Of a stretch of DNA of 64,000 nt, positions 16,202 through 52,964 are shown one piece after another (the first letter of the stretch is position 1; each line of letters begins with the position of its first letter). The notes under the pieces are model-generated. The model made no database searches. It saw only the letters and a list, made by a program, of their open reading frames with translations, and was not told the DNA's origin. This DNA comes from Nemertoderma westbladi (lineage: Eukaryota > Animalia > Xenacoelomorpha), in NCBI GenBank assembly GCA_032718475.1, contig JAUCBJ010008074.1, positions 1-64,000 of the forward strand, in the 5' to 3' direction. The translations under genes were made by a program, and so were the position numbers.

Positions 16202-17394
16202 GTAGGTGGGGGTACCTGTCTGGTGTTGGAGGGAGGGAGGGAGAGGTTCCTGTCTGGTGGAGGGGGGGAGGGGTCCCTTGTCCCTGTCTGGTGGAGGGAG
16301 GGAGGGGTCCCTCTCTGGTGGAGGGAGGGAGGGGTCCCTGTCTGGTGGAGGGAGGGCGGGGTCCCTGTCTGGTGGAGGGAGGGAGGGGTCCCTGTCTGGT
16401 GGAGGGAGGGAGGGGTCCCTGTCTGGTGGAGGGAGGGAGGAGTCCCTGTCTGGTGGAGGGAGAGAGGGGTCCCTGTCTGGTGGAGGGAGGGAGTCCCTGT
16501 CTGGTGGAGGGAGGGGTCGCTGTCTGGTGGTGGAGGGAGGGGTCCCTGTCTGGTGGAGGGAGGGAGGGATCCCTGTCTGGTGGAGGGAGGGAGGGGTCCC
16601 TGACTGGTGGATGGAGGGAGGGGTCCCTGTCTGGTGGTGGGAGGGAGGAGTCCCTGTCTGGTGGAGGGAGGGAGGGGTCCCTGTCTAGTGGAGGGAGGGA
16701 GTCCCTGTCTGGTGGAGGAAGGGAGGGAGGGGTCCCTGTCTTGTGGTGGAGGGAGGGGTCCCTGTCTGGTGGAGGGAGGGAGGGGTCCCTGTCTGGTGGA
16801 GGAAGGGAGGGGTCCCTGTCTGGTGGAGGGAGGGAGGAGTCCCTGTCTGGTGGAGCGAGGGAGGGGTTCCTGTCTGTATCTGGTGGAGGGAGGGAGGGGT
16901 CCCTGTCTGGTGGAGGGAGGGGGGGTTCCTGTCTGGTGGAGGGAGGGAGGAGTCCCTGTCTGGTGGAGGGAGGGAGGGGTCCCTGTCTGGTGGTGGATGG
17001 AGGGGTCCCTGTCTGGTGGTGGAGGGAGGGGTCCCTGTCTGGTGGTGGAGGGAGGGGTCCCTGTCTGGTGGAGGGAGGGAGGGGTCCCTGTCTGGTGGTG
17101 GAGGGAAGGAGGGAGAGGTCCCTGTCTGGTGGAGGGAGGGAGGGGTCCCTGTCTGGTGGTGGAGGGAGGGAGGGAGAGGTCCCTGTCTGGTGGAGGGAGG
17201 GAGGGGTCCCTGTCTGGTGGAGGGAGGGAGGGGTCCCTGTCTGGCGGAGGGAGGGAGGGGTCCCTGTCTGGTGGAGGGAGGGAGGGGTCCCTGTCTGGTG
17301 GAGGGAGGGAGGGGTCCCTGTCTGGTGGAGGGAGGGAGGGGTCCCTGTCTGGTGGAGGGAGGGAGGAGTCCCTGTCTGGTGGAGGGAGGGAGGG
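16202..17394. repeat. G/A-rich minisatellite (about 22-30 bp, GGTCCCTGTCTGGTGGAGGGAGGGAGG), left part
   Basis: Directly visible tandem array starting at the intron 2 donor and split by the BEL insertion. Confidence 0.97.
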
Positions 17395-18052
17395 TGTTAG
17401 CTTATTCAATCCCGCCAACACCCCATAAAGTTATTAGCCGATAAGCAATATTGGGAGCCGCGAGATTGGGTAATTAACCAACTCACGCCATCCCAATAAG
17501 AATGGGAAGGAAGCACACAATAGAGGGTCAGGGGCCAAACCCCTAACCCAGAGAACAGGTGGAGTGAACGGGAATACTCCACGGGGCGCCAACAAGGGTA
17601 TTAACCAATCAGAGGCGGGAATGGCATCGATTGAGTAGCAGTAAGGCCACCATGCAATATAACAAATAACCTATTAATCAGTGATTCAGTTATCTCAAGT
17701 GCAGCAGTGCTAGCGTAGGGTACAGCCAATTAGTTTAGTTAGGGGATCACGGGACTTTAGTTACCGTATCCCGCCTTGTACACATTCACAATATATCTAT
17801 ATCTTATAACCTCCTATTATACACCGAACTTCAGAACTCAGTCACTTTATTTCATCCTTATACACGGCGGGGACGCGTGGACTAAATTACCACAACCGGA
17901 TAAATCGGGATCCCCCTTGGATCCCTTCACAGTAACTAAAACGGTGTTGCTTCCCCAGCTAAACTCAGTAACTAAATCCGAGCTGCCGCCCTAGTTAAAC
18001 TCGAAGAACTACCGGTACAACCTAGCTAGCCGAATCATCAGCCACAAACGAG

Positions 18053-21000
18053 ATGAGTGAATCGGGCGAGACACCGACGCGGACCCCGGACGAAGACCTA
18101 ACGATCCGCGAGGCCGCGACCAAGCGATACAGGCCCACGACGCCGGAGCCATCGATAACGGGCGAACCGGAAGTCCAGGACGAGGAGGGCCTGGAACCCG
18201 AAGTCGAACCAAGAGAGAAAGAGAGCGAGACGGAGGGAGAGGGAGATGAGTCGACACGGAACGGAGAACGGCGCGCCGATGTCGCCGGCCAGCTACCGGC
18301 CGAGGGCGACGGGCGGCCCACCGAAACGGCGACGGTGGGGCCGACGGTGCGACGCCGGACGCGAAGAGACGGAGGAGAGATCGGTACCGATGTCGCCGGC
18401 CAGCTACAGGCCGAGGGCGACGGACGGCCCACCGGAACGGCGACGGTGGAGCCGCCGGTACGACGTCGAACCCGGAGGGACGGAGGAGAGGTCGGCGACG
18501 AGGACGTCGGGGTTTCTGACCGACTTCGACGGGCCTACAACGCGACCCGGAAGCTGATAAACGACGCCAAGAAGGAAGGGGCGAAGATAGACGAGGTGAG
18601 ACTGAGAAAGCGACTAGGTGAGTCGGATAGACACTTAAATTACCTGATACGTTTTGGGCAAAGAGAACTAGCCGGGGAGAGAGCAAAGGGAATTGCAGGC
18701 GAACTGTTTGAACTATGGGAGTGTGGGAGTATGGGACCTAGTATAGTGCCAGTGTACATAGGGCCATACTTAATCGATGCCCGGGGAGTAAAACCAGTGG
18801 GTTGGAAGGGACCTGAAGAGGGCGAATCCGAGGTTAACACCGAGGATTCGGCCTCGTCGGTCGGAGAAAGCTCCGAAAAGGGGGAGAAAGTTAGTAGGTC
18901 GGGAAGGCGGGGGAAGTCCGTCGTAACCGATAAGTCTGCTACATCCTCCGCGAAAGAAAGAGCGGTGAGAAAAATAGGAGCCACATACCGTCTCAGCATG
19001 GCAGAGCAAGGTCAGAGAGAAATGAAGGAACGGCTAGAGGAGGGAAGAGTGCGGTTAGAGAGGGAAACGGTATTGCTTAGGGAAACCGGAGAAAGGGCCG
19101 AAAGGGCTTTGAAAAGCCTAAGGGAGTATGATGAGATAGAGGAAAGGGAGTGTAGGGAGCGTGAAGCGAGAGAGGAAAAGGAACGCGAGGAGCGTGAGGC
19201 GAGAATGGAAAAGGAACGCGAGGAGCGTGAGGCGAGAATGGAAAAGGAACGCAAGGAGCGTGAGGCGGAACGCAAGGAGCGTGAGGCGGGAATGGAAAAG
19301 GAACGCAAGGAGCGTGAGGCGGGAAAGGAAAAGGAACGCAAGGAGCGTGAGGCGAGAAAGGAAGAGGAACGTAAAGAGCGTGGGGCGAGACGAAGGGAGA
19401 GCATTAAGAGTGCCGCAGACTCGGCCATCAAGGACACCCAGGAGCGTGAGGGGATAGTGGCAAAGGGTGAAAAGGAGCGCAAAGAATTAAAGGAACGGCA
19501 GAGTGAGTATGCGAAAGATATAATTAGAGGGACGCACGAGTTGGAATACGTGCGAGTGGGACCGCCGTCTGAAACCAGGGCCGGCTCGAGTATTTTTGAG
19601 GAGCCGAGGGCCGTAGACGTATTTGTTAATACTCCACTGACAGGGACCGCGCGACAGACTCAAGACTGGTGCGACCGTACGAGCGGGGGGGGTAATAATA
19701 ATAATGGTACAGTAGACGTTGTTGATATTAATAGTACCGTATGGGATAACGCTAATCAAACCTTTATTACAGGAAATACTTTGCCTGGTGGTAGTAATTT
19801 AAATTTAAATCAGAACGATCCTAGTGTTAATGTAGAAAATAATCCTAATATTGATGTAGTTACGCAAAATAATTCAAATAATCAAAATAATAACTCGAAT
19901 TCGGACCTACAAAATAACTTAAATAACGCAATTACACAGAATAATTCGAATAATTCAAATAATAATCTTAGCCCGAATTTACAAAATAATTCAGATAACA
20001 TAGTCGCGCAGAATAATACAAATGACTTTGTTTCAAATGAGCAAATTACTTCCGTTTCCAATATGGGTGCTATTAGTGTAGACACGTCGGGCCTACGTAA
20101 CCAGGGAGCAGAGGGCCTGGTAGGCCGCGTAGTTAGTAGACAGGGAGCAGAGGGCCTGGTAGGCCACGTAGTTGGTAGACAGGGAGCAGAGGGCCTGGAA
20201 GGCCACGCAATAGCAGAGGGAGAGGCGGGGGTGAATAGACCCGACTGTGGTAGGGTTGATGTGTCGACTAGAGAGATATATAGTAGCGGGGCGAGAGGTA
20301 GCGAAGTTAGATGTAGCGAGTGGGGGGGGGCTACGAGCACCCCACAACAGAGAGTTAGCGGCGAGAGGGGGGGGGGGGGGGGCAGAGAGTGTCCCACAGC
20401 CGTCAGCGGACAATGCGAGGGCCGAACAAGGTAAACCGCAACAACCGGCGACGGAGAGTAATAGGGGGATTGCGAGTATCCCCGGCGACGTGCGATCAAG
20501 CAGAGAAAGACAGGTTGACGTCGCGGGAGGGCAGACGGAACGTCGAGCCCGATCAGAGGAGGAAAGAAGAACAGTGGGGTTTAACCGGGAGGTCGACGAG
20601 AGATCTCGTGAGCGGGAATATTCCACTGATAGAAGAAGAGAGGAAGAGAGTAGTAGAAGTATCGCCGCAAAAGATAGAAGAGCGAGGACGGATAGCGAGC
20701 CGTCGGTAGTCGAGATGAGAACGGAGAGTCAGTGGGGTCGGACTCCGGGAGATTGCTGTCGCCCCGGAGGGATGCGATCCGGCGAGGCGCATTACGCGCC
20801 GAGAGAGGGGTACGCGATGTATCGGTACGAAGATGAAAACAGTGGAGAGGGGGGTCGAAGAGAAACTTTCCGACGGAATATACCTACCGATCGAGAATAC
20901 GGTAGCCGCGGGGAGGATTATTCGAGAAGAATAAACTTCGATCCCGAACAACACATGCAGACTGTAGGGCACACTGTAGGTCTTACTGCACATACCGTAG

Positions 21001-21250
21001 GCCATACTGAGAGAGGCGATGTAGGTGATAGGATAGCGCGGACAACGGGATTAAACCCGGAAGTCGCGGAATACATACCGGCGGGTAGGCCAGAAGCTGA
21101 TAGGCCTATACCGGTACCAGCACAGCAGTATGACTACAGCATGCAGGGACATAACATATACCCAGGGGAGGGGGGAATTATTGCGGATAGGTGTATGGGC
21201 CCCAACATATTAACATCAACCCCAGTACCAGACATACCGGTGGGGGGGGA
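18053..21250 (+). CDS. N-terminal part of the BEL gag polyprotein (charged coiled-coil and Asn-rich), split into ORFs 18053-20434 and 20247-21320
   Basis: Overlapping ORFs whose junctions coincide with G homopolymers (G16 at 20367-20382, G8 at 21242-21249). The first and third ORFs share the same frame. Confidence 0.65.
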
Positions 21251-24200
21251 CAGGGTGACATTCCCCCATCACAATATCAACAATATACCCCGACAGGAAC
21301 AAGAACAACGAGACCCCTAGATGAAAACAGGTCGTGTGATACAGACATATGGAGGGGGCCGCTACCCCCGATGACATATCCGAGTCAGAGAAGATCAAGA
21401 AGTAGGACGGACGAACCGCACCAGACAGGGGAAACTATACAGCACCCGTCGAATCCATTAGAAGCGCAGGCAATGGGGATGGCCACGTTGATCGATGCGT
21501 TGAAAACGAGGATCGAATTACCACCCGTGGAACCGTTCAAATTCGATGGGAGCAGGCCGGAAGAATACTTACAGTTCCGGCGAATGTATAGTAACGAAAT
21601 ACTAACAAAAAACTTGACGCAGGCGGAGTGCCTGAAGTATCTACAAGTGTACACGGGAGGCCCAGCATACGACATCGTGAGGCAATACCAAGGAATAGAG
21701 GGCGGCTTCACGACAGCATGGCGGGCACTGGATAGGGAATACGGGCACCCGGCCAAGATCATCAGGCAAACGCTGAGAGGCATAACATCGGGTGGCCTAC
21801 AGGATAATCCCGTTAGCATTAAGACGTTTGCTAACAAAGTCGAGAAGGCGCTGATCGTGCTGAAGACGTTAGACGCGCCATACGAACTCAACGCGTCCAA
21901 TAACATCACCACGATAGCGCAGGCACTACCGAGCTGGCTGCGCAACAAATGGAGGAAGGTTGCTTTCTCCACCCGAGACAAGAAGGGTGCGGAACCAGGT
22001 TTAGAAGAAATGTCAAACTTCTTAAATTACGAAGCTGAACTAATAACGGACCCAGTCTATAGTGAAGATAGCCTGGGAAAGGGACCAAAGACAGATCACT
22101 ACAGGCCCAAACCAGAGCACAATACATCGAACGCGCTACCGAGACTCAGGCAATCATTGCCATATGCAGCGACGCAGGGGACTGCAAGTCCACAGACAAG
22201 CGAAGATAGGACAACATCAAGGGACGGACAGGGGAACAATAACAACATGAATAAACATAACCCCAGTACGTCCAGTAGGTCAAACCCAGTCAATAAGAAT
22301 AGTAGGGACTTTGGTACGAATATAACTGCGATACGCAATGCATTGTATAAAGAGGGCTATGACCCAAAGAGCAAATGCCAGTTACACGCAAATGCGCTTC
22401 ATAAAACCATGAACTGCAGGTACTGGCAGGCGCTACCGAGGCAAGACCAGATAGATTACGCGTCGAGCAATAAAATCTGCTCGCGATGTGTGAAAAGTGG
22501 ACACAAGGCCAGGGAATGCCAAGAGAAACCGGTCAAGTTTGGCCAGAGGAGAGGCCAGACGATGGCAACGAGCACAGTAGGGGCGAAGAAGAGAGGAACA
22601 GTGCTACTTGGAGTAGTACCAGTACGAGTGATCGGGGAAGGCAATCGATCAGTAACAACATTAATGCTGGTTGATAGTGGAGCTGCCTTCACATTAGTTG
22701 AGGAATGGGTAGCCGAAGAAATAGGGTTGAGAACGAGGCCAAGCAGGATGGCGGTGACAACCATCTCTAGCAAAGACGAGATCCTAGAGATGAGGACAGG
22801 ACGGTGCGCAATTGCAGCAGTGGCACCAGGATGCGATTATGGGGCAACCATCGACCCCATCCAAGTAATAGAGTCAATTAACATCAATGCCAGGCGGCCA
22901 ACCAACATCGAGGTCGAGCAATACAAATTCCTGGACAACATTGACTTCTCAATCCCAGACGTGGACGTTAGGAAGGTATCCATCATAGTAGGCATGGACT
23001 GCCCAACGGCCCACGAGAGAATGCAGACGGTCTTCGGCGAAGACAAGCAGAGCGACCCGGTGGCCATATTAACGCCATTCGGGTGGACGCTGAGTGGTCC
23101 AATTAAGAGCAAGATACCATTCAGGATGTCGGAGACATCAGGATGCATGTTCGCGGGAACAATGCAGGAAATGGGTGACGAGGGAGCAGAGGAGCAGCTT
23201 AAAAGACTGCTCAGACAGGACTTCGAGGGACTGAAAGAGACCGGGGTCGGGACCTCGGTAGAAGACAAGCAGGCTCTACAAAGCGTGGAGGAAACGATGA
23301 CGTGTGATGAGGGGCGGTATACAATAGGAATGGTGTGGAAACTACCGAAGATACCGCTACCCGATAATAGAGGGATGGTGCTCACGAGACTCCGCAAGCT
23401 GAAACAAACACTACAACGGAGCCCCGAGAAGAACGAGTACATTCACAAAACCATTAAGAAGTACGTCGAGAAAGGATGGGCCGTGGAGTTACCGGTCGAC
23501 GAACCGAACACGGACAGGACATACTACCTGCCACTCCACGTAGCTTTAGACCCAAAGAAAGGTAAACTTAGGATGGTAGTCGATGCATCGGCAAAGACCG
23601 ACGGAAAGTGCTTAAACGATTACCTACTAGAGGGCCCAAACATATACAATTCGGGCATAGAAGTACTACTTAGATTTAGGAATGGGAAACACGCCTTCAC
23701 GTGTGACATAGAAGGCATGTTCAACCAAGTCCGAGTAACAGAAGAAGATAGTGACAGTCAACGCTTCTTATGGTATAACGGCGAAGAAGAACCGCCGGTA
23801 ATACCAGCGTATAAGATGGTAGTACAAAATATGGGGGCCAAGTCGTCCTCGTTTACGACGACTATGGCAGTGAGAGACACGGTAAAGGGCAAGGAAGATA
23901 GATATAGCAGTAGGGCCGTCGACATGATCAGACGCGGTTTCTACGTAGACGACGGCATGGAGTCTGGAAATACGGTTGAGGAGATACTGGAAACAGGGCG
24001 CGAGGTTCGCGACATCCTGAAAGGATCCGGCTTCAACCTGACCAAATTCCAATCCAGTTCAGAAGAATTTATCAGGGAAATAGAAGACAAGAAACCAGAA
24101 TCGACCATGGACAACCCTACAACAGCCAAAGGACAGGACATGGCGATTAAGAGAACGGAATCCCAGCAGAAGGCGTTGGGAATCGTGTGGGATAGAAAAA

Positions 24201-26581
24201 CAGACGAACTGAAGTATCAGCTGAGCCAGGAGGGCGCAGACACCCATACGAAGAGGGGTTACGTATCGTATATAGCAAGGATATACGATCCCCTAGGCCT
24301 AGCATCCCCATTACTAGTCACGGGGAAACAGATACTCAAGAGAGTATATAAGTTGAAGGATGAGTGGGACGTAGAGGTACCAGAAGACATCAAGAAACAG
24401 TGGAGCAAATGGACAGGAGACTTGGAGAGGATGGGAACATACAACATGCCGCGAGTGTATTTCCCGGACGGGAACATGACGAATCTGGACCTACATATGT
24501 TCTCCGACGCGTCGTTAGAGGCATACGGAGCGGCACTCTATTTAGTACAACGAGAGGGGCCTCACAAGCCCAGACTAGCCTTTAGCAAAGCTAAGTCAAC
24601 GCCGCCAGATTCAGCATCTGTTCCCAAGTTAGAATTGACAGCCGCGAGACTAGGAGTTAGAGCCACAGCCTACCTAGTGGATACAATTCCCAACATAGTG
24701 GAGACACACTACTGGACGGACTCCATGGTAGTGCTTGGTTGGCTACACAACGAAAAGACGAGGTACCCGATATTCGTCGCGAATAGAGTGGACGAAATAA
24801 GGGCGAGCACAGAACTGGAAAGGTGGCACTACTGCCCAACAGACGAGAACCCAGCGGACTTGCTGTCGAGGGGCGTGGAACGCCACACTTTCTTAAAGAA
24901 AGAAGCATTGTGGCAACACGGGCCACAATTTCTGAGCGATAGGGAGGCCTGGCCGCCGATGAGGAAGGTGGACCCGGGCTCGGAAGTAGTATCAGAAGGA
25001 GAAGAGGGAGATTCAGAGGGAGAAGAGATATACTCCCAGATGGTGAGGGAGATCAGGGACGTGCAACCAGGAAGGGAACTGTGCGATAACCCGACGGATA
25101 AACTCCTCAGCTACAGTTCTAGTTGGTATAAGACCAAGAAACTAGTGGCGTACTGGAGAGCCTTTGGGAATTTCCTTGCGGGAGTCGGCAAGGACAAGAA
25201 GACCAGGACAACCATAGATCTGGAAGGAGCGGCCAAGGCAGTGATCCGCTATGAACAACGCAAGAACTACGGCGACGAGGTGGAACGTGTCGGTAACCAA
25301 CAACATCTCCGACGGGATAGCGAGCTGATCACGCTGTCGCCACAACTCAACGAGGATGGGATCCTAGTAATGAATTCTAGGGTGGGATATAACAACAGTA
25401 TAGTCGTACCACCGAAACCCATCATCATTCCCACAGGATCGCCCATAGTCCACCAGATCATATGGGACTCCCACAAATCGATACTGCATGGGGGCACCAA
25501 CCGAACCCTCACAGAGATAAGGAGGACCTATTGGGTCAAACAATTAAGGAAGAAGGTGAAAGCGGTAGTGGGACAGTGTCAGACCTGCCGACGAGCGAAG
25601 AAGGAGCGAGCCGTACAGGAGATGGCGCCACTACCGGCGAGTAGGGTAAAACAGCACGACCCGCCATTTACACATTGCGGTGTGGACATGTTCGGGCCGA
25701 TAAAGATCAAGGTGATGCGACACACGGAGAAACGCTACGGTATTATCTTCGTATGCAACAACACGCGGGCGGTAGGGATAGAACTCGCCCAAGATGCAAC
25801 CGCATCAGCCTTCATTAACGCCTTAGAAAGGTTTAGGGACCGCAAAGGTGGGACGATCGCAGTGATATACAGCGACAACGGCACCAACTTTGTGGGCGCA
25901 GAGAGTGAGATGGCAGAGGCCTTAGAAATCTTGGAGGGAGAAGAAGTCAGGGCGGCCATGAGAAGACGACAAGTGAAGTGGGAGAGAAGGACGCCGTATG
26001 CACCACATACGTTAGGATGCGTCGAGAGACTCGTGGGCAGTTCAAAACGTCTAATGACGAAGCTGATGAACACCCACATGGTCACTGAAGACGTCTTACG
26101 GACAGTACTTGCGAAGTGCGAGGGGATAATTAATAGCAGACCGCTATACCCGGAGAATGATGACCCTGAGTCATTAGATGTGCTGACGCCTAGCCATTTC
26201 CTCATGGAAAGGCCAGCGACCATAGATATGCGGGGTGTAGACCCAGATGATATACACTCCCGCCAAAGTTGGAAAGTAGCTAAAGCAATTAGCGCAGAGT
26301 ATTGGAGGAGGTGGGTAGAAGAATACCTACCCACGCTCCATAAGCGAAGCAAGTGGAGGAAGCCAAATAGGGAGTTGAGAGAGGGAGATCTCGTAATCGT
26401 CACGGATGATACTATCATCAACAACCAATGGCGGTTGGCGAGAGTTGTAGGCACCTACTCCGACAGGGACGGAAGAGTCCGATCGGTAGAAGTGCGGATA
26501 GGTGGAAAGATAGGTGCGAAAGACAGAAAAACCTACAGGAGAGCAGTAGGTAAATGCTGTCTTCTAGAAGGGGCACCTTAA
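21191..26581 (+). CDS. BEL/Pao Gag-Pol (gag core, Zn knuckle, protease, RT, RNase H/Pao domain, integrase)
   Basis: KFDG..EY..F gag core, CSRCVKSGHKAREC, LVDSGA, FYVDD, FSDAS..AYG, PKLEL, WTDS, NPADLLSRG, HGG..CQTC, GVDMFGP, SDNGTNF, ERLV, LTPSHFL. Confidence 0.95.
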   Translation: MYGPQHININPSTRHTGGGGQGDIPPSQYQQYTPTGTRTTRPLDENRSCDTDIWRGPLPPMTYPSQRRSRSRTDEPHQTGETIQHPSNPLEAQAMGMATLIDALKTRIELPPVEPFKFDGSRPEEYLQFRRMYSNEILTKNLTQAECLKYLQVYTGGPAYDIVRQYQGIEGGFTTAWRALDREYGHPAKIIRQTLRGITSGGLQDNPVSIKTFANKVEKALIVLKTLDAPYELNASNNITTIAQALPSWLRNKWRKVAFSTRDKKGAEPGLEEMSNFLNYEAELITDPVYSEDSLGKGPKTDHYRPKPEHNTSNALPRLRQSLPYAATQGTASPQTSEDRTTSRDGQGNNNNMNKHNPSTSSRSNPVNKNSRDFGTNITAIRNALYKEGYDPKSKCQLHANALHKTMNCRYWQALPRQDQIDYASSNKICSRCVKSGHKARECQEKPVKFGQRRGQTMATSTVGAKKRGTVLLGVVPVRVIGEGNRSVTTLMLVDSGAAFTLVEEWVAEEIGLRTRPSRMAVTTISSKDEILEMRTGRCAIAAVAPGCDYGATIDPIQVIESININARRPTNIEVEQYKFLDNIDFSIPDVDVRKVSIIVGMDCPTAHERMQTVFGEDKQSDPVAILTPFGWTLSGPIKSKIPFRMSETSGCMFAGTMQEMGDEGAEEQLKRLLRQDFEGLKETGVGTSVEDKQALQSVEETMTCDEGRYTIGMVWKLPKIPLPDNRGMVLTRLRKLKQTLQRSPEKNEYIHKTIKKYVEKGWAVELPVDEPNTDRTYYLPLHVALDPKKGKLRMVVDASAKTDGKCLNDYLLEGPNIYNSGIEVLLRFRNGKHAFTCDIEGMFNQVRVTEEDSDSQRFLWYNGEEEPPVIPAYKMVVQNMGAKSSSFTTTMAVRDTVKGKEDRYSSRAVDMIRRGFYVDDGMESGNTVEEILETGREVRDILKGSGFNLTKFQSSSEEFIREIEDKKPESTMDNPTTAKGQDMAIKRTESQQKALGIVWDRKTDELKYQLSQEGADTHTKRGYVSYIARIYDPLGLASPLLVTGKQILKRVYKLKDEWDVEVPEDIKKQWSKWTGDLERMGTYNMPRVYFPDGNMTNLDLHMFSDASLEAYGAALYLVQREGPHKPRLAFSKAKSTPPDSASVPKLELTAARLGVRATAYLVDTIPNIVETHYWTDSMVVLGWLHNEKTRYPIFVANRVDEIRASTELERWHYCPTDENPADLLSRGVERHTFLKKEALWQHGPQFLSDREAWPPMRKVDPGSEVVSEGEEGDSEGEEIYSQMVREIRDVQPGRELCDNPTDKLLSYSSSWYKTKKLVAYWRAFGNFLAGVGKDKKTRTTIDLEGAAKAVIRYEQRKNYGDEVERVGNQQHLRRDSELITLSPQLNEDGILVMNSRVGYNNSIVVPPKPIIIPTGSPIVHQIIWDSHKSILHGGTNRTLTEIRRTYWVKQLRKKVKAVVGQCQTCRRAKKERAVQEMAPLPASRVKQHDPPFTHCGVDMFGPIKIKVMRHTEKRYGIIFVCNNTRAVGIELAQDATASAFINALERFRDRKGGTIAVIYSDNGTNFVGAESEMAEALEILEGEEVRAAMRRRQVKWERRTPYAPHTLGCVERLVGSSKRLMTKLMNTHMVTEDVLRTVLAKCEGIINSRPLYPENDDPESLDVLTPSHFLMERPATIDMRGVDPDDIHSRQSWKVAKAISAEYWRRWVEEYLPTLHKRSKWRKPNRELREGDLVIVTDDTIINNQWRLARVVGTYSDRDGRVRSVEVRIGGKIGAKDRKTYRRAVGKCCLLEGAP

Positions 26582-26694
26582 ATTAGAGTTAGTGTGAAGT
26601 TTAGTCGTCCAAGTTTTGGACTGAGGGGGGTGGGATTGAGGGCGAGACACCCTTCCCACACAAATAAAATAAAATAAAACAAAAATAAATAAAA

Positions 26695-27210
26695 GTTAGT
26701 TAGTTAGTAGGTACGTAGTACCTAGAGTTAGTTAGTTAGTAGGTACGTAGTACCTAGAGTTAGTTAGTTAGTAGGTACGTAGTACCTAGAGTTAGTTAGT
26801 TAGTAGGTACGTAGTACCTAGAGTTAGTTAGTTAGTAGGTACGTAGTACCTAGTTAGAGTTAGAGGGTACGTAGTACCTAGTTAGAGTTAGAGGGTACGT
26901 AAAGCCTAGTTAGAGTTAGAGGGTAGGTAGTACCGATAGTTAGAGAGTTAGTAGGTACGTAGTACCTAGTTAGAGTTAGAGTTAGAGGGTACGTAATGCC
27001 TAGTTAGAGTTAGAGTTAGAGGGTAGGTAGTACCGATAGTTAGAGAGTTAGTAGGTACGTAGTACCTAGTTAGAGTTAGAGTTAGAGGGTACGTAATGCC
27101 TAGTTAGAGTTAGAGTTAGAGGGTAGGTAGTACCGATAGAGTTAGAGTTAGTAGGTACGTGGTACCTAGTTAGAGTTAGAGTTAGAGGGTACGTAGTACC
27201 GATAGTTAGA
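26695..27210. repeat. Tandem repeat spacer between pol and the extra ORF (GTTAGTTAGTTAGTAGGTACGTAGTACCTAGA and variants)
   Basis: Directly visible. Each unit contains the dyad TAGGTAC..GTACCTA. Confidence 0.9.
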
Positions 27211-27718
27211 AAGAGAGAGTAAGAGGTAAAAGGGGTAAAAAAAAATAGGATATAGATATTAGATAGCAGTAAGTAGAGTTAGTAGCGAGAGGGGGGCATA
27301 TGAGTGCAGCTGGATAAATCGTGTGGCCACACGACGCATACGGCTGTACTGCATAGGCCCACTGAGTAGGCCAGAATATGGATCAGAGAGAGAATAGAAT
27401 AAATCCATAGGCAGTAGTAAGTAGTAGGACAGTAGAATCAAAGAAAAATAAATAAATAAATAGAATAGGGCTAAAATCGGAAAATAGTGGTAACACAAGG
27501 AAAGTCGTTCTAGAACATAATAAAAGTAACGGACGGAAATTGTAAATTAGGCTGATTTACTAGCTCCGAAATTAATTAGATTAAATTAAGCTTGAAAGGC
27601 GCAGTTAAGTAGAAAAGCAGGCCATTATCGAACTGTAAGAAACATCTTAGTACATCACTCATCTGTATTGCGCCTTGGTAAGGCACCACCCTACAGGTGA
27701 GCGAGTGTAGTGTTCGGA

Positions 27719-30253
27719 ATGGCGAGTAAGCTGATCAGGAAGAGAAAAGCGGAGTCGGGAGGAAAAGAAATATTGGTGGATTTCACCGAAAGACACCCGG
27801 AGGAGAAGACGAGAGGATACTACGAGAGGTTGGAAAGGGGTCACGCGGCACGAGCGCTGCAGGATCACTTCCGGGAGGCGCACGAACAGCGGTTGGTCGG
27901 GACCTACGGGACGCCGTCGCTGGATAACGCGATCTTCCAACACTTCCACTACGTGGTGAAAGGAGACGAGGCGAAGTTCGGGATTCCGAAGTATCCGAGG
28001 GAATCGCCGAGGAAGGACTGGAAAAGATTCATAGAGTCCGTCAACAGAGGAGGATATATGATCCTAGATGACGAGGGAACCGTGGAAGACGAAGCGGGTT
28101 CGAGACGAGGAACGGCAGGGTCGGCCAGGACCATACTCTTGCATTTGGCAGCGCCAAATGGGGACATCTTCTTATTCGACCTAGGGACGTATGGGAAGAA
28201 GGACGGGCCGAAATTAGACCGACTGCCGAAAGCGGTACAGGTCTTAGTAAGAGAGAAGTCGACGACGAAAGTGGGATCGGCGATTCGCGAGGACGCGGAG
28301 AGGATCATCGGTCCGGACGCCACCAACCTCCTGGATATGCAGAAAGTCTTTATGGCTATGACGGCACCGGATGGATTGGGGGTGGTCGAGAACTCAGGCC
28401 AATGCGGGGCGGTGGCGATGGGCCAATTATTGGGGCTCGTATGCCACAAACCAATGGATTGGGGGAAGTTTAGGGAAGAATACGGAGCGGAACTAGCGAA
28501 CTCGCTGAAGTGGGGAGCGAGACCGGGAAAGCAGGAGGTATATCAGTTTCGCAGAGGAGCGATAAAGGTATATCAGAAGCGATATATCCTGCAGGAGGAC
28601 TGGATGATGATAAGTTTACTTAACTTATTCATGACCGTAGTTATCGAAAGGGAACCAGGGGCATTTCTGTTATCGGGATCACCCCTAAGCTACAGGAGAG
28701 CCTTTAAGACGGCCTTTGACGGTCTGGTAGACCACCCGGGGCTGAAGGGCGAGTCGGTGTACTACAACAGCCGACATCTGGTAGATGGGGAAACGGATAC
28801 ACCGTATCAGAGATGGGAGCAGCTAGAGATGGATAGACGGGAAGCAAAGCGACTGGAAGAAGTCGCTAGACGGGAGAGGATAGAAGCAGAGGAGAGGGAA
28901 GAGGAGGCCAGGACACAGAGTTATGGCTTCGAGGAACAGGCGGGCCTAGACGAGCTTCATTGGACTTCGTCAGGGAGTTCGGGGGAGTCTCTAGGGCGAG
29001 AATTGGGATGGACGGTGGGATCGCCGAAACAGTCGACGTCGGGGTTGCAAACGATGCCCATACCAGCGGGCGCCGAGGGCGACCAACCGCCAAGGAAGTT
29101 AAGGGAGCTAGAGGGATGGAGAGCTACGGGCGAAAGCCAAGGCGGAAAGGGACATAGTGGATCCGTCGGGATACCGGGATTGGAGACGCTACCGGAAGAA
29201 GAGGACGACGACGACGAATTCGGAGAGATGCCGCCCATCGAGAGAATAGGCCACTCGGACACGGACTGGGTTGGCGGAAGGGTGGTGACGGCCAGTGGGG
29301 CGAGGGCCTTCTGGAACAGATCCGGCAAGCGGACCTGGGTGCACGAGGGGCCGGCGATGGATTTCGCAGGGAGCACCATCAGGTTGGGCGAGCAACCGGG
29401 GACGGCACCACGGATAGTATTCGGGGAGACGATGCCCGAGAGGGGCGGAGAGATCGACGTAAACAGGGAGAGCAACGTGGAGAAGTTTGCCTACCAGCGA
29501 CTCCATAGACCGCGGAGATCGCTTGGGACAAAGGACGAGGTGGGACGCGAGACATTGGTACTCGGCTGCGACTACTGTGGGAGACAGACCCATCAGGAAA
29601 GCAGCTGCCTATACCGGTTCCAACGGGGAACCTTTTGTCTCTATTGTAGAGAACCAAGTCACAGGATGGGGGCGTGTCCACGGTTGCATAACCGATGTCC
29701 AAAGTGCCACTTTCGGGGACACTACGGACGCGAGTGCGACTGGATGAGCGACGAGGAGAAGTTCACAAGGTTCGAGGAGTGGGCCGACGTCGGGGCCATG
29801 ACGCGCCAGCGCATGAAGGCCCAAGAGTTCAAGTGGGGTTTCTTCCTCATAAACCAGGAGACCCACATGGAAATCATAAAGCGAAGGTTACCGTTTACCT
29901 ATCAAGAGGTAGCTACGGCGGCATCGTTCGCCGGAGTTATGAACACGCAACGGTACCTGGACAGGTGGACACCAGAGAACCGGAGGGAGTTTAGGGATTT
30001 CTTGGCGGAACACGTACCAAAGGCAATGAAGATGATCCTATGGGACGCCACACGAGGGAAACAACCAGGCCATTCTGAGGGGCCACCGGCGAAGCGGTAT
30101 CGGGCTTTAATAACACCAGCGCCCAAGGAGCCGACGACCGGGATCAGCAAGGAAGTGGCAGCGAAGGTCCGGAAGCAGAAAGCGGATGATGCCAGAGGAA
30201 CAGTGATAACCAAGAAACGGGCCAGGGAGGAGGACGTGAGGAGGTACAGATGA
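27719..30253 (+). CDS. Extra ORF of BEL element 1: DEDDy (WRN/EXD/Mut-7-like) 3'-5' exonuclease-like domain plus three CCHC zinc knuckles
   Basis: Intact ORF of about 844 aa between pol and the 3' LTR. Motifs: ILDDEG, LHLAAPNGDIFLFDL, LPKAVQVLV...KVGSAIRED, LLDMQ, QKRYILQED, then three Cx2Cx4Hx4C. Confidence 0.75.
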   Translation: MASKLIRKRKAESGGKEILVDFTERHPEEKTRGYYERLERGHAARALQDHFREAHEQRLVGTYGTPSLDNAIFQHFHYVVKGDEAKFGIPKYPRESPRKDWKRFIESVNRGGYMILDDEGTVEDEAGSRRGTAGSARTILLHLAAPNGDIFLFDLGTYGKKDGPKLDRLPKAVQVLVREKSTTKVGSAIREDAERIIGPDATNLLDMQKVFMAMTAPDGLGVVENSGQCGAVAMGQLLGLVCHKPMDWGKFREEYGAELANSLKWGARPGKQEVYQFRRGAIKVYQKRYILQEDWMMISLLNLFMTVVIEREPGAFLLSGSPLSYRRAFKTAFDGLVDHPGLKGESVYYNSRHLVDGETDTPYQRWEQLEMDRREAKRLEEVARRERIEAEEREEEARTQSYGFEEQAGLDELHWTSSGSSGESLGRELGWTVGSPKQSTSGLQTMPIPAGAEGDQPPRKLRELEGWRATGESQGGKGHSGSVGIPGLETLPEEEDDDDEFGEMPPIERIGHSDTDWVGGRVVTASGARAFWNRSGKRTWVHEGPAMDFAGSTIRLGEQPGTAPRIVFGETMPERGGEIDVNRESNVEKFAYQRLHRPRRSLGTKDEVGRETLVLGCDYCGRQTHQESSCLYRFQRGTFCLYCREPSHRMGACPRLHNRCPKCHFRGHYGRECDWMSDEEKFTRFEEWADVGAMTRQRMKAQEFKWGFFLINQETHMEIIKRRLPFTYQEVATAASFAGVMNTQRYLDRWTPENRREFRDFLAEHVPKAMKMILWDATRGKQPGHSEGPPAKRYRALITPAPKEPTTGISKEVAAKVRKQKADDARGTVITKKRAREEDVRRYR

Positions 30254-31498
30254 GTTCCCGGAGGCGAGGGAATGAGACTGAGACTGGGACGTGGTGCGCC
30301 TGGAAGGTGCCGCATGTAACGTACGAACTATTAAGTATAAATTTAATTAATGCAAATAACTATATAAGTGCAATTTGTATGTACGTACGTAGTGATTAGC
30401 AGTAAAATACATACGTTTGGAGTAAGTACTATAGTCATGCAACCTTTCTCAATTAGCTACTGGGACTGGGGGACAATTGACTATGGCACTATGGACGAGA
30501 CAACTGACAATTTCACACTTCTTGAGTGCGGCGGCACGAGAGGGGGGGGAGGTTCGTCAGGAGAGATAAAACAGTCAAAGTGGACTTGGGAACCGGAATA
30601 AGAGTGTAAAGTGCGGAGAGAGTGCGAACGCAATTCTAGTGTGGGGGGGGGGAGAATAAGAGGCTGAGTGAGGGACGAGGAGGTCCGGGGGTATGAGAGA
30701 GTTAGGGTGAGAGTAGAGGGGAGATAGGGCGAAAGTGTTGGGGAAACAAAAGTTGCGTGGGAGGCGAGCGCGACCGGCCCGACATGAGACGCCAGGCACA
30801 CAGGGTAGCGATATCATACCCATAGGGGGCGGCCTGGAAAGCCGACCCCGAGAGAAAAGAATTCCACCCCACACCCGATATTAGATCGGGATCCAGCGGG
30901 ATTGTAGCGCACTTTTTTGGTTGATGCTATCTTCTTACCGGGAAGATAGCATGGGGGGGAGTGTTAGCTTATTCAATCCCGCCAACACCCCATAAAGTTA
31001 TTAGCCGATAAGCAATATTGGGAGCCGCGAGATTGGGTAATTAACCAACTCACGCCATCCCAATAAGAATGGGAAGGAAGCACACAATAGAGGGTCAGGG
31101 GCCAAACCCCTAACCCAGAGAACAGGTGGAGTGAACGGGAATACTCCACGGGGCGCCAACAAGGGTATTAACCAATCAGAGGCGGGAATGGCATCGATTG
31201 AGTAGCAGTAAGGCCACCGTGCAATATAACCAATAACCTATTAATCAGTGATTCAGTTATCTCAAGTGCAGCAGTGCTAGCGTAGGGTACAGCCAATTAG
31301 TTTAGTTAGGGGATCACGGGACTTTAGTTACCGTATCCCGCCTTGTACACATTCACAATATATCTATATCTTATAACCTCCTATTATACACCGAACTTCA
31401 GAACTCAGTCACTTTATTTCATCCTTATACACGGCGGGGACGCGTGGACTAAATTACCACAACCGGATAAATCGGGATCCCCCTTGGATCCCGTCACA

Positions 31499-32920
31499 GA
31501 GGGGTCCCTGTCTGGTGGAGGGAGGGAGTCCCTGACTGGTGGAGGGAGGGAGGGAGGAAGGGGTCCCTGTCTGGTGGAGGGAGGGAGGGAGGGAGGGGTC
31601 CCTGTCTGGTGGTGGAGGGAGGGGTCCCTGTCTGGTGGAGGGAGGGAGGGGTCCCTGTCTGGTGGAGGGAGGGAGGGGTCCCTGTCTGGCGGAGGGAGGG
31701 AGGGGTCGCTGTCTGGTGGAGGGAGGGAGTCCCTGTCTGGTGGAGGGAGGGAGTCCCTGTCTGGTGGAGGGAGGGGTCCCTGTCTGGTGGTGGAGGGAGG
31801 GGTCCCTGTCTGGTGCTGGAGGGAGGGGTCCCTGTCTGGTGGAGGGAGGGAGTCCCTGTCTGGTGGAGGGAGGGAGTCCCTGACTGGTGGAGGGAGGGAG
31901 GGGTCCCTGTCTGGTGGTGGAGGGAGGGAGGGAGGGAGGGGTCCCTGTCTGGTGGTGGAGGGAGGGGTCCCTGTCTGGTGGTGGAGGGAGGGGTCCCTGT
32001 CTGGTGGAGGGAGGGAGTCCCTGTCTGGTGGAGGGAGGGAGGGGTCCCTGTCTGGTGGTGGAGGGAGGGAGGGAGGGGTCCCTGTCTGGTGGTGGAGGGT
32101 GGGGTCCCTGTCTGGTGGAGGGAGGGAGTCCCTGTCTGGTGGAGGGAGGGATTGGTCCCTCTCTGGTGGTGGAGGGAGGGAGGGAGGGGTCCCTGTCTGG
32201 TGGAGGGAGGGAGTCCCTGTCTGGTGGAGGTGAAGGAGGGAGGAAGGGGTCCCTGTCTGGTGGAGGGAGGGAGGGAGGGAGGGAGGGAGGGGTCCCTGTC
32301 TGGTGGTGGAGGGAGGGGTCCCTGTCTGGTGGAGGGAGGGAGGGGTCCCTGTCTGGTGGTGGGAGGGAGGGGTCCCTGTCTGGCGGAGGGAGGGAGGGGT
32401 CCCTGTCTGGTGGAGGGAGGGAGTCCCTGTCTGGTGGAGGGAGGGAGTCCCTGTCTGGTGGAGGGAGGGGTCCCTGTCTGGTGGTGGAGGGAGGGGTCCC
32501 TGTCTGGTGCTGGAGGGAGGGGTCCCTGTCTGGTGGAGGGAGGGAGTCCCTGTCTGGTGGAGGGAGGGAGTCCCTGACTGGTGGAGGGAGGGAGGGGTCC
32601 CTGTCTGGTGGTGGAGGGAGGGAGAGAGGGGTCCCTGTCTGGTGGAGGGAGGGAGGAAGGGGTACCTGTCTGGTGGTGGAGGGAGGGGTCCCTGTCTGGT
32701 GGAGGGAGGGAGTCCCTCTCTGGTGGAGGGAGGGAGGGGTCCCTGTCTGGTGGTGGAGGGTGGGGTCCCTGTCTGGTGGAGGGAGGGAGTCCCTGTCTGG
32801 TGGAGGGAGGGATTGGTCCCTCTCTGGTGGTGGAGGGAGGGAGGGAGGGGTCCCTGTCTGGTGGAGGGAGGGAGTCCCTGTCTGGTGGAGGGAAGGAGGG
32901 GTCCCTGTCTGGTGGTGGTG
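31499..32920. repeat. G/A-rich minisatellite, right part
   Basis: Same unit as 16202-17394, resuming after the TSD. Confidence 0.97.
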
Positions 32921-43302: not shown

Positions 43303-44148
43303 ATGTATCTTCTTGTATGTTCTTGTATGTATCAATACAAATTGAACAAAATGTAACCAAATGCAGAACTATAAGAACAAAATTTAGATTCAAGAAAGCG
43401 GAACTCTAAGTACAAAATATAGCCATGGGTGGTACTCTACAGTAAGAACAAAGTCTAGCTACAGGGTTACAGCTACGTTAAAGTAAAGTTCACTTACAGT
43501 ACGTCATGACGAATAATTAAAGACCTGTTTTTTCTACAGTACGTGGCAACATTTTGAGCAACTCTATCAGCAACTTAGTAAGCATTAGTAGTAATGGTTT
43601 ACCCTACTTCTGCGACAGTTTGGTCCCACTTCACACCTTGGGTGTTAAGTAGGTCATTAATTAATTAATCAATTAATTAATTGGTCGATTAAACAATTAA
43701 TTAATTGTTTAATCAATCGATTTGTATCAAATAATGTTGCCAAAGGCAATTTAATTTGATACAAATCAATCAGATAGGGACGCGCGATGAATAAATTGTA
43801 CTACAGTAGGTACAGTAGATAAAATATACAATACAATAGGAACCGTAGTACAGTACAATACAATATACAATACATTTGTATTATTTTTGCCATACAATAG
43901 GTAAAGGTAGAATTAAATAAAAAGACACAATCGAAACCCAAAACATAAATTACCCTCACACAAAAATAAAGTGGCCCCAGTTTGACTAATCCCTTTGAAT
44001 CCATAGCTTCGTTATTACATCAATTCATCCAAGAAATTAGAATAATCATCTACTCTTGCAATAGTTTGTATTCTTTTGCGTTATACTTTATGAAGCAGTC
44101 CACGCGCATATTAACTCAAAGACAAACCCCTACCCAAACACCATGTGA

Positions 44149-44451
44149 TCAATAATCCCACACCTCTTCTCCCCACGCCATTGAACATTCTCCCTTCTTC
44201 TCTTCTTTCTCTTCTTTTTTCTCTTCTTTTTTCTGTTCTTTTAATATATGAAAAATTGAGTTCCTGGACCTATATTCGCAAAACCGCAAATGGTGATCCT
44301 TTTCAGCTTCTCTAAAGCTGTGTGCGGGTTGAAAAGGACACTGAACCATTTTTTGATTCGAAAAGTTCTTACGACATTTTCTTAAATGCGTAACATATTT
44401 TTCTGAATGAATTCTGTGTGTGGCATCATAAGGACATATGAAATATTCCAT
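44149..44451 (-). CDS. GTSF1/Asterix-like double CHHC zinc-finger protein, 100 aa (left-arm copy)
   Basis: CPYDxxHx9HxxxCRKN and CPFxxxHx9HxxxC fingers plus a C-terminal WGEEVWD. Translation is identical to the right-arm copy. Confidence 0.85.
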   Translation of the reverse strand: MEYFICPYDATHRIHSEKYVTHLRKCRKNFSNQKMVQCPFQPAHSFREAEKDHHLRFCEYRSRNSIFHILKEQKKEEKKEEKEEKKGECSMAWGEEVWDY

Positions 44452-45163: not shown

Positions 45164-45560
45164 CCACAACCACAGCCACATCCACAACCACAGCCACAGC
45201 CACAGCCACAACCACAGCCACAGCCACAGCCACAGCCACAGCCACAGCCACAGCCACAGCCACAGCCACACCACAGCCACAGCCACAGCCACAGCCACAG
45301 CCACAGCCACAGCCACAACCACAGCCACAGCCACAGCCACAGCCACAGCCACAGCCACAACCACAGCCACAGCCACAACCACAGCCACAGCCACAACCAC
45401 AGCCACAGCCACAGCCACAGCCACAACCACAGCCACAACCACAGCCACAACCACAGCCACAGCCACAGCCACAGCCACAGCCACAGCCACAACCACAACC
45501 ACAGCCACAACCACAGCCACAGCCACAACCACAGCCACAACCACAGCCACAACCACAGCC
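45164..45560. repeat. (CCACAG/CCACAA)n hexamer microsatellite, left arm
   Basis: Directly visible. Mirrored at 46978-47418. Confidence 0.97.
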
Positions 45561-48050: not shown

Positions 48051-48131
48051 TCTCTAAAAATATTAAGTGAGGTTTTTAAAAGTTTTTTAAAAAGTATATC
48101 TCAATAAATTTTGTTTTTGTCTTTTGTTACT

Positions 48132-50920: not shown

Positions 50921-52705
50921 CTATTTCTTACTCTGATACGCTTTCCTTCTCTTCGCCCGTCTACTCTCGTCGATCGCCAGTGCAGGTAGGGGAGCGTCAA
51001 CGTCCATCGCGAGCATCGCTGCAGCTTGTCTCCTGGCGGCCCTTCCTTTGGATGGTAGCGGGATCATGTCCGTCCGTCTCTCCAACTCGGTAGTGCGTGC
51101 CTCTAGAAACCACTTTCCATCACCGAATTCTTCTTTGTAGGAGTATAAGCGCCTGAGGATCTCGAAGGGACCGAATAATCCAGCGCTCAATAGTAGATCC
51201 ACATAATGGAATGGTAGTGTCGATGCCGTATGGAGGCGTTCTGGGAACGAGAAGTATCCGCACGCCATCTCTTGCGCGACATTTCGAGCGCTTCTCCACA
51301 CTTTGGTCTTTACGTGGTTATTGGCGTAGGTTTCAAACATAACCATATTTCCCATAGCTGTTACGTCTTTAGTAGGACACTTTATGTTACAACGGGGACT
51401 CGCGGAATGTCCACGGAAACCGCATTTTGTGCAGAGGTTGTAAAGGGTAGGACAAACCGAAACATCGTGGCCCGATATCGCGCAATAGGGACAGTAAAGT
51501 ATCCCAAGGAGCTGGAGGCACAAATCGGTAACCCGATTTCTCCTTCCGCGTGGACACTGTTCCGAACTGCAGTTTCCGCACACCTCCAGTTGCATCTCCC
51601 GGCCGAAGAATATCGGGATCGGTACGCCGGCGTAATACTCCAGCCATCGGTCACTTTTGGGGATACTCGCAGTTGCCGGTAGCCCGCGGAATGCTGGGCT
51701 TTGGTGGAATATGTTCTCGCTACGATAACCTTCCTTATAGCCCGCCGGTCGCATCCCGGGAGCCTGTTTCTGGCGGTGGATCCACTCGGTTTGTTCGGCA
51801 TACCATCGGGTAAGTCGCATAGGGTCTTGTGGAATGGAGGGGGCCATCGCCACAGCCGGTCGGCGAAGGGGTACTGGCGATTTCGTCAGTCTCACTTCCC
51901 GGAATCCACGCATGAATTCTGTGGATCGCAACCAGGCTAACAGGGTTTGGGTGTCGACGAAGTGACTAATGGTGCTGAGGTCTTCTTGTCGGTTTCTTCC
52001 GAAGGGAGCATTGGCGTAGTCATTCCGGATATCCGCTTTTATATCTGACCCAATCGTAATAACATCGAAATCGAATAGGATCTGTTGGATCTCCGGTGGT
52101 AATAACCAGATCGCTCCGGATGTCCGCACCTCCTGTTTGGGTGTCGAGAAGATCCGACATATTAACACTAGACCGTCTAGGGTTCCGAGGACGACGACTA
52201 ATGATCGACCGTATTCCTTTGTCCCATACTTCTCCTGGTAGTCATCGCGGTTCTGGATGACCGATATACGCTCCTCTCGTAGCGACGTTGTACATTCCGC
52301 TAGGTTTCCCCAGTGGGTGAGGTATGTACTCTTGTCGTCGACGAAACTTTGGCATCGCACCAACGTAATCGCTTTCGAAGTGGGCGTCGCGTTTCCCTCG
52401 TTGTCATATATCAAACATCGGGATTTGTAGACGCTTCGACGGAACGTTTCCCAGAACGTCAACTCCGCTCCTCTGGTTGCCTTTGCGTTCCGAGTTCTTT
52501 TCAGGCTCGTACTAGCATCGGACAACCAGAGCTCTCGTAGATTACGGGAATCCGGTTCCTCTCGCCCAGAGAATTTAATGATTCGCACATTCTCTGTTAT
52601 CAGGGCGTTCCATTTCGTATCAAAGTTAGGAGATCTAGGCTGTGGATATTCCAGTAAATCGAGAGTGTTACGTAATTCGCCGAGAATTTGGCGATTTGAG
52701 TCCAT
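50921..52705 (-). CDS. Extra ORF of BEL element 2: degenerate exonuclease-like domain plus zinc knuckles, homologous to 27719-30253
   Basis: LPPEIQQILFDFDVITIGSDIKAD...FVDTQ and CPYCAISGHDVSVCPTLYNLCTKCGFRGH...FETYA...GYF...LPFHY. Confidence 0.7.
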   Translation of the reverse strand: MDSNRQILGELRNTLDLLEYPQPRSPNFDTKWNALITENVRIIKFSGREEPDSRNLRELWLSDASTSLKRTRNAKATRGAELTFWETFRRSVYKSRCLIYDNEGNATPTSKAITLVRCQSFVDDKSTYLTHWGNLAECTTSLREERISVIQNRDDYQEKYGTKEYGRSLVVVLGTLDGLVLICRIFSTPKQEVRTSGAIWLLPPEIQQILFDFDVITIGSDIKADIRNDYANAPFGRNRQEDLSTISHFVDTQTLLAWLRSTEFMRGFREVRLTKSPVPLRRPAVAMAPSIPQDPMRLTRWYAEQTEWIHRQKQAPGMRPAGYKEGYRSENIFHQSPAFRGLPATASIPKSDRWLEYYAGVPIPIFFGREMQLEVCGNCSSEQCPRGRRNRVTDLCLQLLGILYCPYCAISGHDVSVCPTLYNLCTKCGFRGHSASPRCNIKCPTKDVTAMGNMVMFETYANNHVKTKVWRSARNVAQEMACGYFSFPERLHTASTLPFHYVDLLLSAGLFGPFEILRRLYSYKEEFGDGKWFLEARTTELERRTDMIPLPSKGRAARRQAAAMLAMDVDAPLPALAIDESRRAKRRKAYQSKK

Positions 52706-52964
52706 ATTTTAAATTATGTCCGTTGCAAATGTACATCAGTTAATTATAAATCCAGAAAGTCTGATTCTATAGTGACTGCAGAATAATTCAGTTTATTATT
52801 ATTCAGTTTATTATTGCTATATAGGCATCTACCATCTTATTGCTACTACATTCAGTATTTACAGTTACTATAGCTATACATTAATATCCAACCAGTTTTT
52901 TACTTTTTATGTCCTATTCTTTTTCCAATTCTTTTCTTTTCTACATTTTATACATTTTTTTGTC

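Follow-up and report, generated by a model that had tools for sequence, protein, structure and literature searches.

ORF3, an accessory gene at positions 27719-30253, lies between pol and the 3' long terminal repeat (LTR) of a young BEL/Pao retrotransposon in Nemertoderma westbladi. The element was found in the first 64,000 nucleotides (nt) of contig JAUCBJ010008074.1 (assembly GCA_032718475.1, forward strand), and this whole stretch is referred to as the window. ORF3 is a lineage-wide accessory gene of one large, deep BEL/Pao lineage and not a one-off. It is old, vertically inherited and under selection, and a pseudo-enzyme branch exists. The reading preferred here, at a probability of roughly 0.45, is that this predicted RNase D/Nibbler-fold 3'-5' exonuclease with a triple zinc-knuckle module binds the RNA of its own element and trims or shields RNA 3' ends at the particle stage. 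Few accessory genes beyond env are known in animal LTR retrotransposons, and the gene bears on the standing question of whether these elements encode their own RNA-processing or anti-silencing enzymes.

A predicted nuclease joined to a zinc module

A first-pass annotation, made from the letters of the window alone, had described an intact open reading frame (ORF) of about 844 amino acids (aa) in a very young element. The frame is indeed open for 844 aa from its ATG, and the two LTRs carry 3 differences over 537 bp. Other copies of the element have a one-base indel variant 11 nt upstream of the ATG, which is consistent with 27719 as the start. The gene and its domains are as follows:

27719..30253, + strand: ORF3, 844 aa; a disordered acidic linker joins the DEDDy-type exonuclease domain to the triple-CCHC and helical module
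27893..28765, + strand: predicted exonuclease domain, residues 59-349
29567..30043, + strand: zinc-helical module, residues ~617-775, with three CCHC knuckles (29567-29737) and then a helical segment; predicted local distance difference test score (pLDDT) mostly 75-97

Searches with the single sequence returned nothing: ORF3 had no match in Pfam, in a single-sequence PDB search or in three word-indexed homolog searches, and a model folded from the sequence by itself was unusable (pLDDT 32). A language-model Atlas offered PF01612 clusters at 0.93, taken as a lead only, with unnamed clusters (0.94-0.95) ranking higher in the first search. An exhaustive homolog search recovered 75 proteins, mostly via the zinc region. 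The N-terminal domain is also present in 33 of the 74 examined, and no informative name was found among the 30 homolog clusters looked up. A profile of 17 members matches trypanosome RNase D (2e-5), EXD2 (4e-4), Egalitarian (2e-3) and WRN (7e-3), as well as Lin28 and nucleocapsid knuckles.

In a model built from a 34-sequence alignment, most of residues 70-340 and 620-775 are confidently placed, with disorder in the stretch between; pLDDT is mostly 80-95 in the core of the exonuclease domain. Foldseek gave 23 matches below E 0.001, and every match listed is a DEDD nuclease. A structural search placed Nibbler first (Z 13.6; root-mean-square deviation 3.3 over 203 residues), followed by Rrp6 (12.4), WRN (12.3) and RNase D (12.0); 35 chains reached Z >= 8, and the 50 matches listed are DEDD nucleases or polymerases carrying one. 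Profile search, Foldseek and structural search all agree on a predicted DnaQ-like (RNase H-like) DEDDy fold of RNase D type for the N-terminal domain, as had been anticipated. The subfamily is unassignable because the Nibbler, Rrp6, WRN and RNase D scores are nearly tied. No HRDC domain was matched in ORF3 or in 74 homologs, and the model has a long helix and disorder at that place.

All six motifs from which the first-pass annotation had read an exonuclease are in place, as are its three Cx2Cx4Hx4C knuckles at about 29567-29737 (individually 29567-29608, 29636-29677 and 29696-29737). Its ExoI/II/III layout stands, with the acids partly reassigned: the family alignment puts the ExoIII acid at E293 (Y-x3-E) and not at D294, and the D of LLDMQ, conserved as it is, falls outside the four catalytic acids, ExoII being D192 in KVGSAIRED. 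The active site predicted by alignment consists of D117 (28067), E119 (28073), D192 (28292), Y289 (28583) and E293 (28595), and the window ORF3 is thereby a predicted-active DEDDy-type exonuclease.

The zinc module is the best-conserved part of the ORF3 family. Across 38 aligned members, the spacing of knuckles 2 and 3 is fixed and the helical segment follows them. On its own, the zinc-helical module had no solved-structure match better than E 0.3, and no Pfam family was hit by two or more of the 38 members, so that the gene adds a conserved module without a Pfam or solved-structure counterpart. Membrane anchors have a hydropathy threshold near 1.6. The maximum 19-residue hydropathy of ORF3 is 1.3, and the protein is therefore taken to have no membrane anchor and not to be an envelope protein. 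An env-type signal peptide and transmembrane anchor, which the earlier annotation had also failed to see, were not found by hydropathy, and the model predicts a soluble nuclease fold.

Distribution, co-descent and selection

A degenerate zinc-module pattern retrieved 120 metagenome loci from 26 of the 64 parts of the collection, 80 of them with flanks. Left out were the 40 loci without flanks, four shorter than 1.5 kb and four without an open motif (L012, L019, L052 and L071), leaving 72 usable loci. L071, a candidate ORF3 locus, was dropped as a prokaryote-like chance match. The set was selected on ORF3 and gives no share of BEL/Pao elements carrying the gene. An open BEL/Pao-type pol end lies upstream on the same strand in 41 of the 72 loci, and four more have a pol tail. 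Where at least 3 kb precede the zinc motif, BEL/Pao-type pol is present in 38 of 41 loci, and where at least 5 kb do, in 31 of 31; most loci without pol lack it because their upstream sequence is too short. Nearly all pol ends scanned (39/41) match Peptidase_A17 or DUF5641, and no other retroelement class was seen upstream of ORF3 among them. The 45 pol-bearing loci are distinct at 90% DNA identity, 43 of them carry the exonuclease domain, and their pols are mostly 25-35% identical to that of the window element. Metagenome and viral contigs yielded no locus in single-protein scans, and viral contigs yielded 0 in a zinc-motif scan.

Some of these loci have features of their own. Exact terminal overlaps, which the collapse of an LTR element into a cycle would be expected to produce, occur in six contigs (L033, L060, L062, L065, L068 and L069). 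In L023, a decayed pol and ORF3 lie between the two members of a real LTR pair (95%; 211-1007 and 9840-10636). In L022, ORF3 is accompanied by a pol tail only, with no further pol match in 10 kb, and this locus is probably a deletion derivative that retained ORF3.

Profiles built from the loci only, with no window sequence in the alignment, recover both ORF3s of the window. The first is scored at 4e-19 (exonuclease) and 6e-17 (zinc module). The second belongs to another BEL/Pao element on the opposite strand:

50924..52708, - strand: ORF3 of the second BEL/Pao element; zinc module as in the first ORF3, exonuclease domain in part; loci-only profiles 1.1e-7 (exonuclease) and 2.1e-9 (zinc)

This second element (~49439-63978, - strand) is older, with terminal repeats ~86% alike, pol in two frames and a reverse transcriptase (RT)-bearing insert at 57597-59822. 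Its pol is 30-37% identical to that of the first element, and its ORF3 is partly degenerate, ExoI and ExoIII not being recognised in the frame 50924-52708. An accessory gene in the env position is thus found in other copies of the window element and in other BEL/Pao families. Absence from other copies, which would have told against the earlier proposal, was not observed: contigs from four runs cover ORF3.

Pol and ORF3 have descended together. Quick maximum-likelihood trees of the 21 elements in which pol spans 1050 aa or more and the exonuclease is matched have 12 of 18 splits in common, compared with at most 2 in 1000 label shuffles, and the distances correlate at 0.93. The window element forms a long branch of uncertain placement in these trees. 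Co-descent of this kind fits adaptation to the element's own parts.

Purifying selection on ORF3, proposed as a check in the earlier annotation, was seen both between elements and within the family of the window element. Between elements, 33 pairs were compared over the exonuclease region: synonymous divergence (dS) is finite in 29, where the ratio of non-synonymous to synonymous substitution rates (dN/dS) is 0.04-0.38, and saturated in the other four. These are estimates by a rough counting method, with dS near 1 and pairs that are not independent. Within the family of the window element, 14 of the 40 variants listed are ORF3 sites, and 13 of these 14 are synonymous, against an expected 33%.

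The active site has had a divided history. Of the aligned domains, 81 have a residue in each of the five columns (duplicates included); 44 of these keep the four acids, 35 of those together with the tyrosine, while 25 have lost ExoI and 12 are mixed. The final acid is E, as in E293 of the window ORF3, in 7 of the 44. Four-acid domains are spread over several deep branches, the window element included. The ExoI-less elements form one supported clade in both trees (9/21 tips) with dN/dS of 0.04-0.31 (13 pairs), i.e. under purifying selection, which argues that the gene is retained even without catalysis.

Expression and proposed function

Two ways of expressing ORF3 are suggested by its surroundings. 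In the window element, it is separated from pol by a long spacer:

26582..27718, + strand: pol-ORF3 spacer, non-coding, 1137 nt; 47-51 stops per frame, a 32-34-bp tandem repeat and an AATAAA cluster

The AATAAA cluster follows the pol stop, and the two most pyrimidine-rich AG sites, 27682 and 27696, lie just before the ORF3 ATG. These two are candidate splice acceptors, and the ORF3 mRNA is probably spliced or internally started.

Relatives were compared in a stop-codon table of 38, from which L023, L039 and L056 are omitted as their pol frame ends early. ORF3 is in frame directly behind the pol stop in ten (L007, L021, L029, L031, L034, L065, L068, L069, L076 and L080). The stop is always TGA, followed by C in nine, so that ORF3 is in frame in 9 of the 14 relatives with a TGA-C pol stop versus 1 of the 24 others. 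UGA-C is a leaky stop context. In eight of the ten in-frame cases, 74-187 codons precede the first Met, a length that shuffles reproduce with a probability of 0.001-0.07 each. The pattern occurs in the dead (ExoI-less) clade and in two active elements (L029 and L076). From this arrangement, UGA readthrough of Gag-Pol into ORF3 appears somewhat more probable than its absence in these relatives. Most members of the dead clade also have a short TCGG motif ~20 nt past the stop.

On the preferred reading, ORF3 would have as its core task the engagement of RNA 3' ends, which members like the window ORF3 would cut and the acid-less clade would only hold. The zinc module may supply RNA binding, by analogy with trypanosome RNase D, and the matching anatomy of the two proteins suggests an RNA-binding protein with a pocket for 3' ends. 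The protein would act chiefly in cis, its targets being element RNA or the small RNAs that pair with it. The window element would make ORF3 from its own, probably spliced, mRNA, and in many relatives the protein would extend Gag-Pol through UGA readthrough and so be carried into the particle. Action in cis is favoured over the alternatives below because of the co-descent with pol and the apparent Gag-Pol fusion in relatives. A fuller and distinctly more speculative version, doubtful as a whole, would be that of a large, undescribed BEL/Pao lineage with its own RNA 3'-end nuclease through most of its history, delivered into particles by readthrough in some branches and a pseudo-nuclease in one, that strips or blocks host small RNAs on its genome. 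If true, this would be a transposon-encoded counter-defence drawn from the same fold as host piRNA (PIWI-interacting RNA) trimmers.

Several observations weigh against the preferred reading. WRN, polymerase proofreading domains and diDNases fall within ~1.5 Z of Nibbler, and the substrate does not follow from a common fold. The linker between the two domains measures ~270 residues in ORF3 versus 28 in trypanosome RNase D. Co-descent with pol is equally expected from plain vertical inheritance of a trans-acting gene. The window element, with so many stops in each frame of its spacer, cannot use readthrough. In the relatives, the association between TGA-C and an in-frame ORF3 (Fisher p 1e-4) is not independent evidence, since related elements share labels; 12 of the 14 elements with TGA-C are members of the dead clade, and 5 of the 14 are out of frame. 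The segment after the pol stop is poorly conserved, and a search of the relatives for a common RNA structure after the UGA found none. Lastly, some copies in the family of the window element have ORF3 deletions (joints 29050-30023, 29546-30319 and 29731-30276), as is also seen in pol.

A trans-acting suppressor of silencing that mimics Nibbler, Mut-7 or EXD1, degrading, mis-trimming or sequestering piRNAs and small interfering RNAs generally, is a credible competitor, if on the unlikely side. Nibbler, a piRNA trimmer, ranks first in structure and EXD1 and Egalitarian are matched as well, but Nibbler is ahead of Rrp6, WRN and RNase D by only ~1 to 1.6 Z, a near tie. Dead members could sequester without cutting, and separate expression in the window element would suit a free cytoplasmic protein. 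However, transfer between families would be expected of a general suppressor, and ORF3 tracks pol instead; moreover, 2'-O-methylated piRNA ends resist nucleases of this type. A silencing role has been raised for the DEDDy ORF3s of rotifers (PMC5408684, excerpt), from which the case for a passenger gene also draws. A captured host gene riding along without benefit to the element would be in keeping with the neutral-looking variation of rotifer ORF3 within a genome (PMC5408684, excerpt) and with the ORF3 deletions in some copies described above. It is nevertheless largely refuted, and very improbable, given that elements whose pols are only 25-37% identical retain the gene, that dN/dS stays under 0.4 and that the trees are congruent.

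The retention of dead members can also be accommodated by an RNA adaptor of Rev/CERV or Egalitarian type, which would bind unspliced element RNA for export, transport or packaging, with the nuclease secondary or vestigial. The zinc module is the best-conserved part, a clade without catalysis is still under selection, and basic stretches at both ORF3 termini could, judging from their composition, be nuclear signals. A precedent is CERV of Cer1, which occupies the ORF3 position, is made from a spliced mRNA and exports genomic RNA (PMC10309623, excerpt). The preservation of four acids in 44 of 81 domains over several deep branches is hard to explain without catalysis in use, and an adaptor is improbable. 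Still less probable is a DNA exonuclease that proofreads for RT or cleans the 3' ends of cDNA or primer. The fold is common to WRN and polymerase proofreading domains, retroelement RTs lack proofreading, and readthrough fusion would set the enzyme beside RT. Yet most in-frame fusions fall in the clade lacking catalytic acids, RNA-acting members are favoured by sequence and Foldseek ranks, and the gene persists over at least three primer-site types. A TGGCGCCC-type site was found outside coding frames in 21 of the 72 loci and another TGG-type site in L051, with none in the window element; adjacency of a TGG-type site to an LTR was checked only in L013 and L023. Since ORF3 occurs with different primer-site types, primer trimming is unlikely as a shared role, and both trimming and proofreading are further weakened by a selected clade without catalytic residues. 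The same 21 loci are the grounds for dropping a connection of ORF3 with self-priming, which had been considered.

The host element and comparison with known systems

The first BEL/Pao element is 14.1 kb long in total and, apart from ORF3 and the spacer, consists of the following parts:

17390..17394, + strand: target-site duplication, left copy, 5 bp (GAGGG), within a 27-bp minisatellite in a VPS11 intron
17395..17931, + strand: 5' LTR, 537 bp, TG...CA ends
17932..17940, + strand: primer-site position, 9 nt exactly complementary to LTR 17756-17764; again at 17968-17976
18026..21320, + strand: low-complexity 5' coding region, overlapping frames 18026-20434 and 20235-21320, without Pfam match
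21191..26581, + strand: BEL/Pao gag-pol ORF, 1796 aa; DUF1759, protease, RT, Peptidase_A17, integrase, DUF5641
30953..30961, + strand: polypurine tract, adjoining the 3' LTR
30962..31498, + strand: 3' LTR, 537 bp; right target-site copy GAGGG at 31499-31503

The gag-pol ORF identifies the element as BEL/Pao by its domains, which Pfam matches in the order DUF1759, aspartyl protease, RVT_1 (weak, E 0.006), Peptidase_A17 (6e-40), Integrase_H2C2, rve and DUF5641 (7e-24). The charged, repetitive coding sequence upstream of the gag core (18026-21320) exceeds 1000 codons and is unusually long for a BEL/Pao gag. GAGGG flanks the LTR pair on both sides. The insertion is intronic, as VPS11 exons on either side match PF23341; its target is a G-rich 27-bp minisatellite (16232-17394 and 31499-32915), and the element has the orientation of the host gene.

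No TGG-type tRNA primer site was seen after the 5' LTR on inspection of this copy, where a tRNA fragment may serve as primer instead, and relatives of the window element do have one. Other copies conserve the same 9 nt after the 5' LTR, with variable sequence beyond them (copy joints). Complementarity of 9 nt to an LTR-internal stretch is the layout of Tf1-type self-priming. The TTAGTT motif is frequent in the element, so the complement may be chance, and local folding at the primer site is ordinary (z -1.0).

Elsewhere in the window, a satellite array with a 52-bp unit (~98 copies) occupies 1-5331. A perfect 1661-bp inverted repeat (43587-45247 and 47336-48996) could reflect a genuine inverted duplication or have arisen in the assembly. 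In each arm, a frame of 108 codons encodes two zinc fingers of CHHC type (PF05253, 4e-10), akin to the piRNA factor GTSF1/Asterix.

The Belpaoviridae profile of the International Committee on Taxonomy of Viruses describes elements of 4.2-10 kb with gag, pol, sometimes env and a tRNA-Arg/Gly primer site (PMC8742986). The window element follows this plan in its LTRs, its Gag-protease-RT-RNase H-integrase order, its polypurine tract, Peptidase_A17 and DUF5641, and departs from it in its length, its enzyme-like ORF3 and its lack of a TGG-type primer site. As the first-pass annotation had held, the gene is missing from the canonical set, for which the profile lists only gag, pol and env. The word 'exonuclease' does not occur in the main text of two BEL/Pao surveys, as far as the available portions go (PMC3118150, PMC6238403). 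No BEL/Pao exonuclease ORF was found in the literature searched, which did not extend to Repbase, Dfam, GyDB, subscription journals or supplements; such elements could be present among the element files that accompany PMC3118150.

Among cellular proteins, Trypanosoma brucei RNase D (TbRND; PDB 7c42-7c4c) is the top match of ORF3 by profile and by Foldseek. As in ORF3, several CCHC fingers come after its DEDD exonuclease. It carries no HRDC, and none was matched in ORF3. The zinc domain of TbRND increases both RNA binding and cleavage (PMC7797062, excerpt). It differs in being a cellular guide-RNA trimmer with four fingers and the short linker noted above (PMC7797062, excerpt), and at only 15-19% identity the common layout may be convergent. 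Nibbler/Mut-7, the WRN exonuclease, Rrp6, EXD1 and Egalitarian have the fold of ORF3 at Z 11-13.6, and EXD2 at Z 8.1. Their identity to ORF3 is 10-20%, and their HRDC, helicase and other flanking domains were not found in ORF3 by Pfam. As in the ORF3 family, active and inactive members occur side by side in these cellular DEDDy relatives. Egalitarian is one of the inactive members. EXD1 is another (PMC5408684, excerpt).

The closest precedent in concept comes from LTR elements of bdelloid rotifers. ORF3 as described here differs from these in its BEL/Pao host, its triple-CCHC helical module, its pseudo-enzyme clade and its occasional position in frame behind a UGA, a comparison made by description. 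The rotifer clades concerned, Juno and Vesta, are Ty3/gypsy-type. Their DEDDy ORF3s, for which a role in 3'-end processing or silencing was proposed (PMC5408684, Rodriguez et al. 2017, excerpt), recur in reviews (PMC5718144, PMC6431247, PMC6338049; excerpts). Like the window ORF3, they have an RNase D-like DEDDy domain behind pol, without membrane segments, and they keep the catalytic residues with one D-to-E change (PMC5408684, excerpt); in the window family such a change is at ExoIII. Juno and Vesta are described as having made at least two independent recent acquisitions and as sharing with Penelope-like elements (PMC5408684, excerpt), whereas ORF3 here tracks pol. In the available part of that paper, the published ORF3s are unassigned in function and look neutral within a genome (PMC5408684). 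The present set, with natural active and dead versions, two apparent expression modes and dozens of BEL/Pao families, is a ready comparative set. The concept is thus known from rotifers, while the host superfamily, the architecture and the evidence for long-term selection appear to be new.

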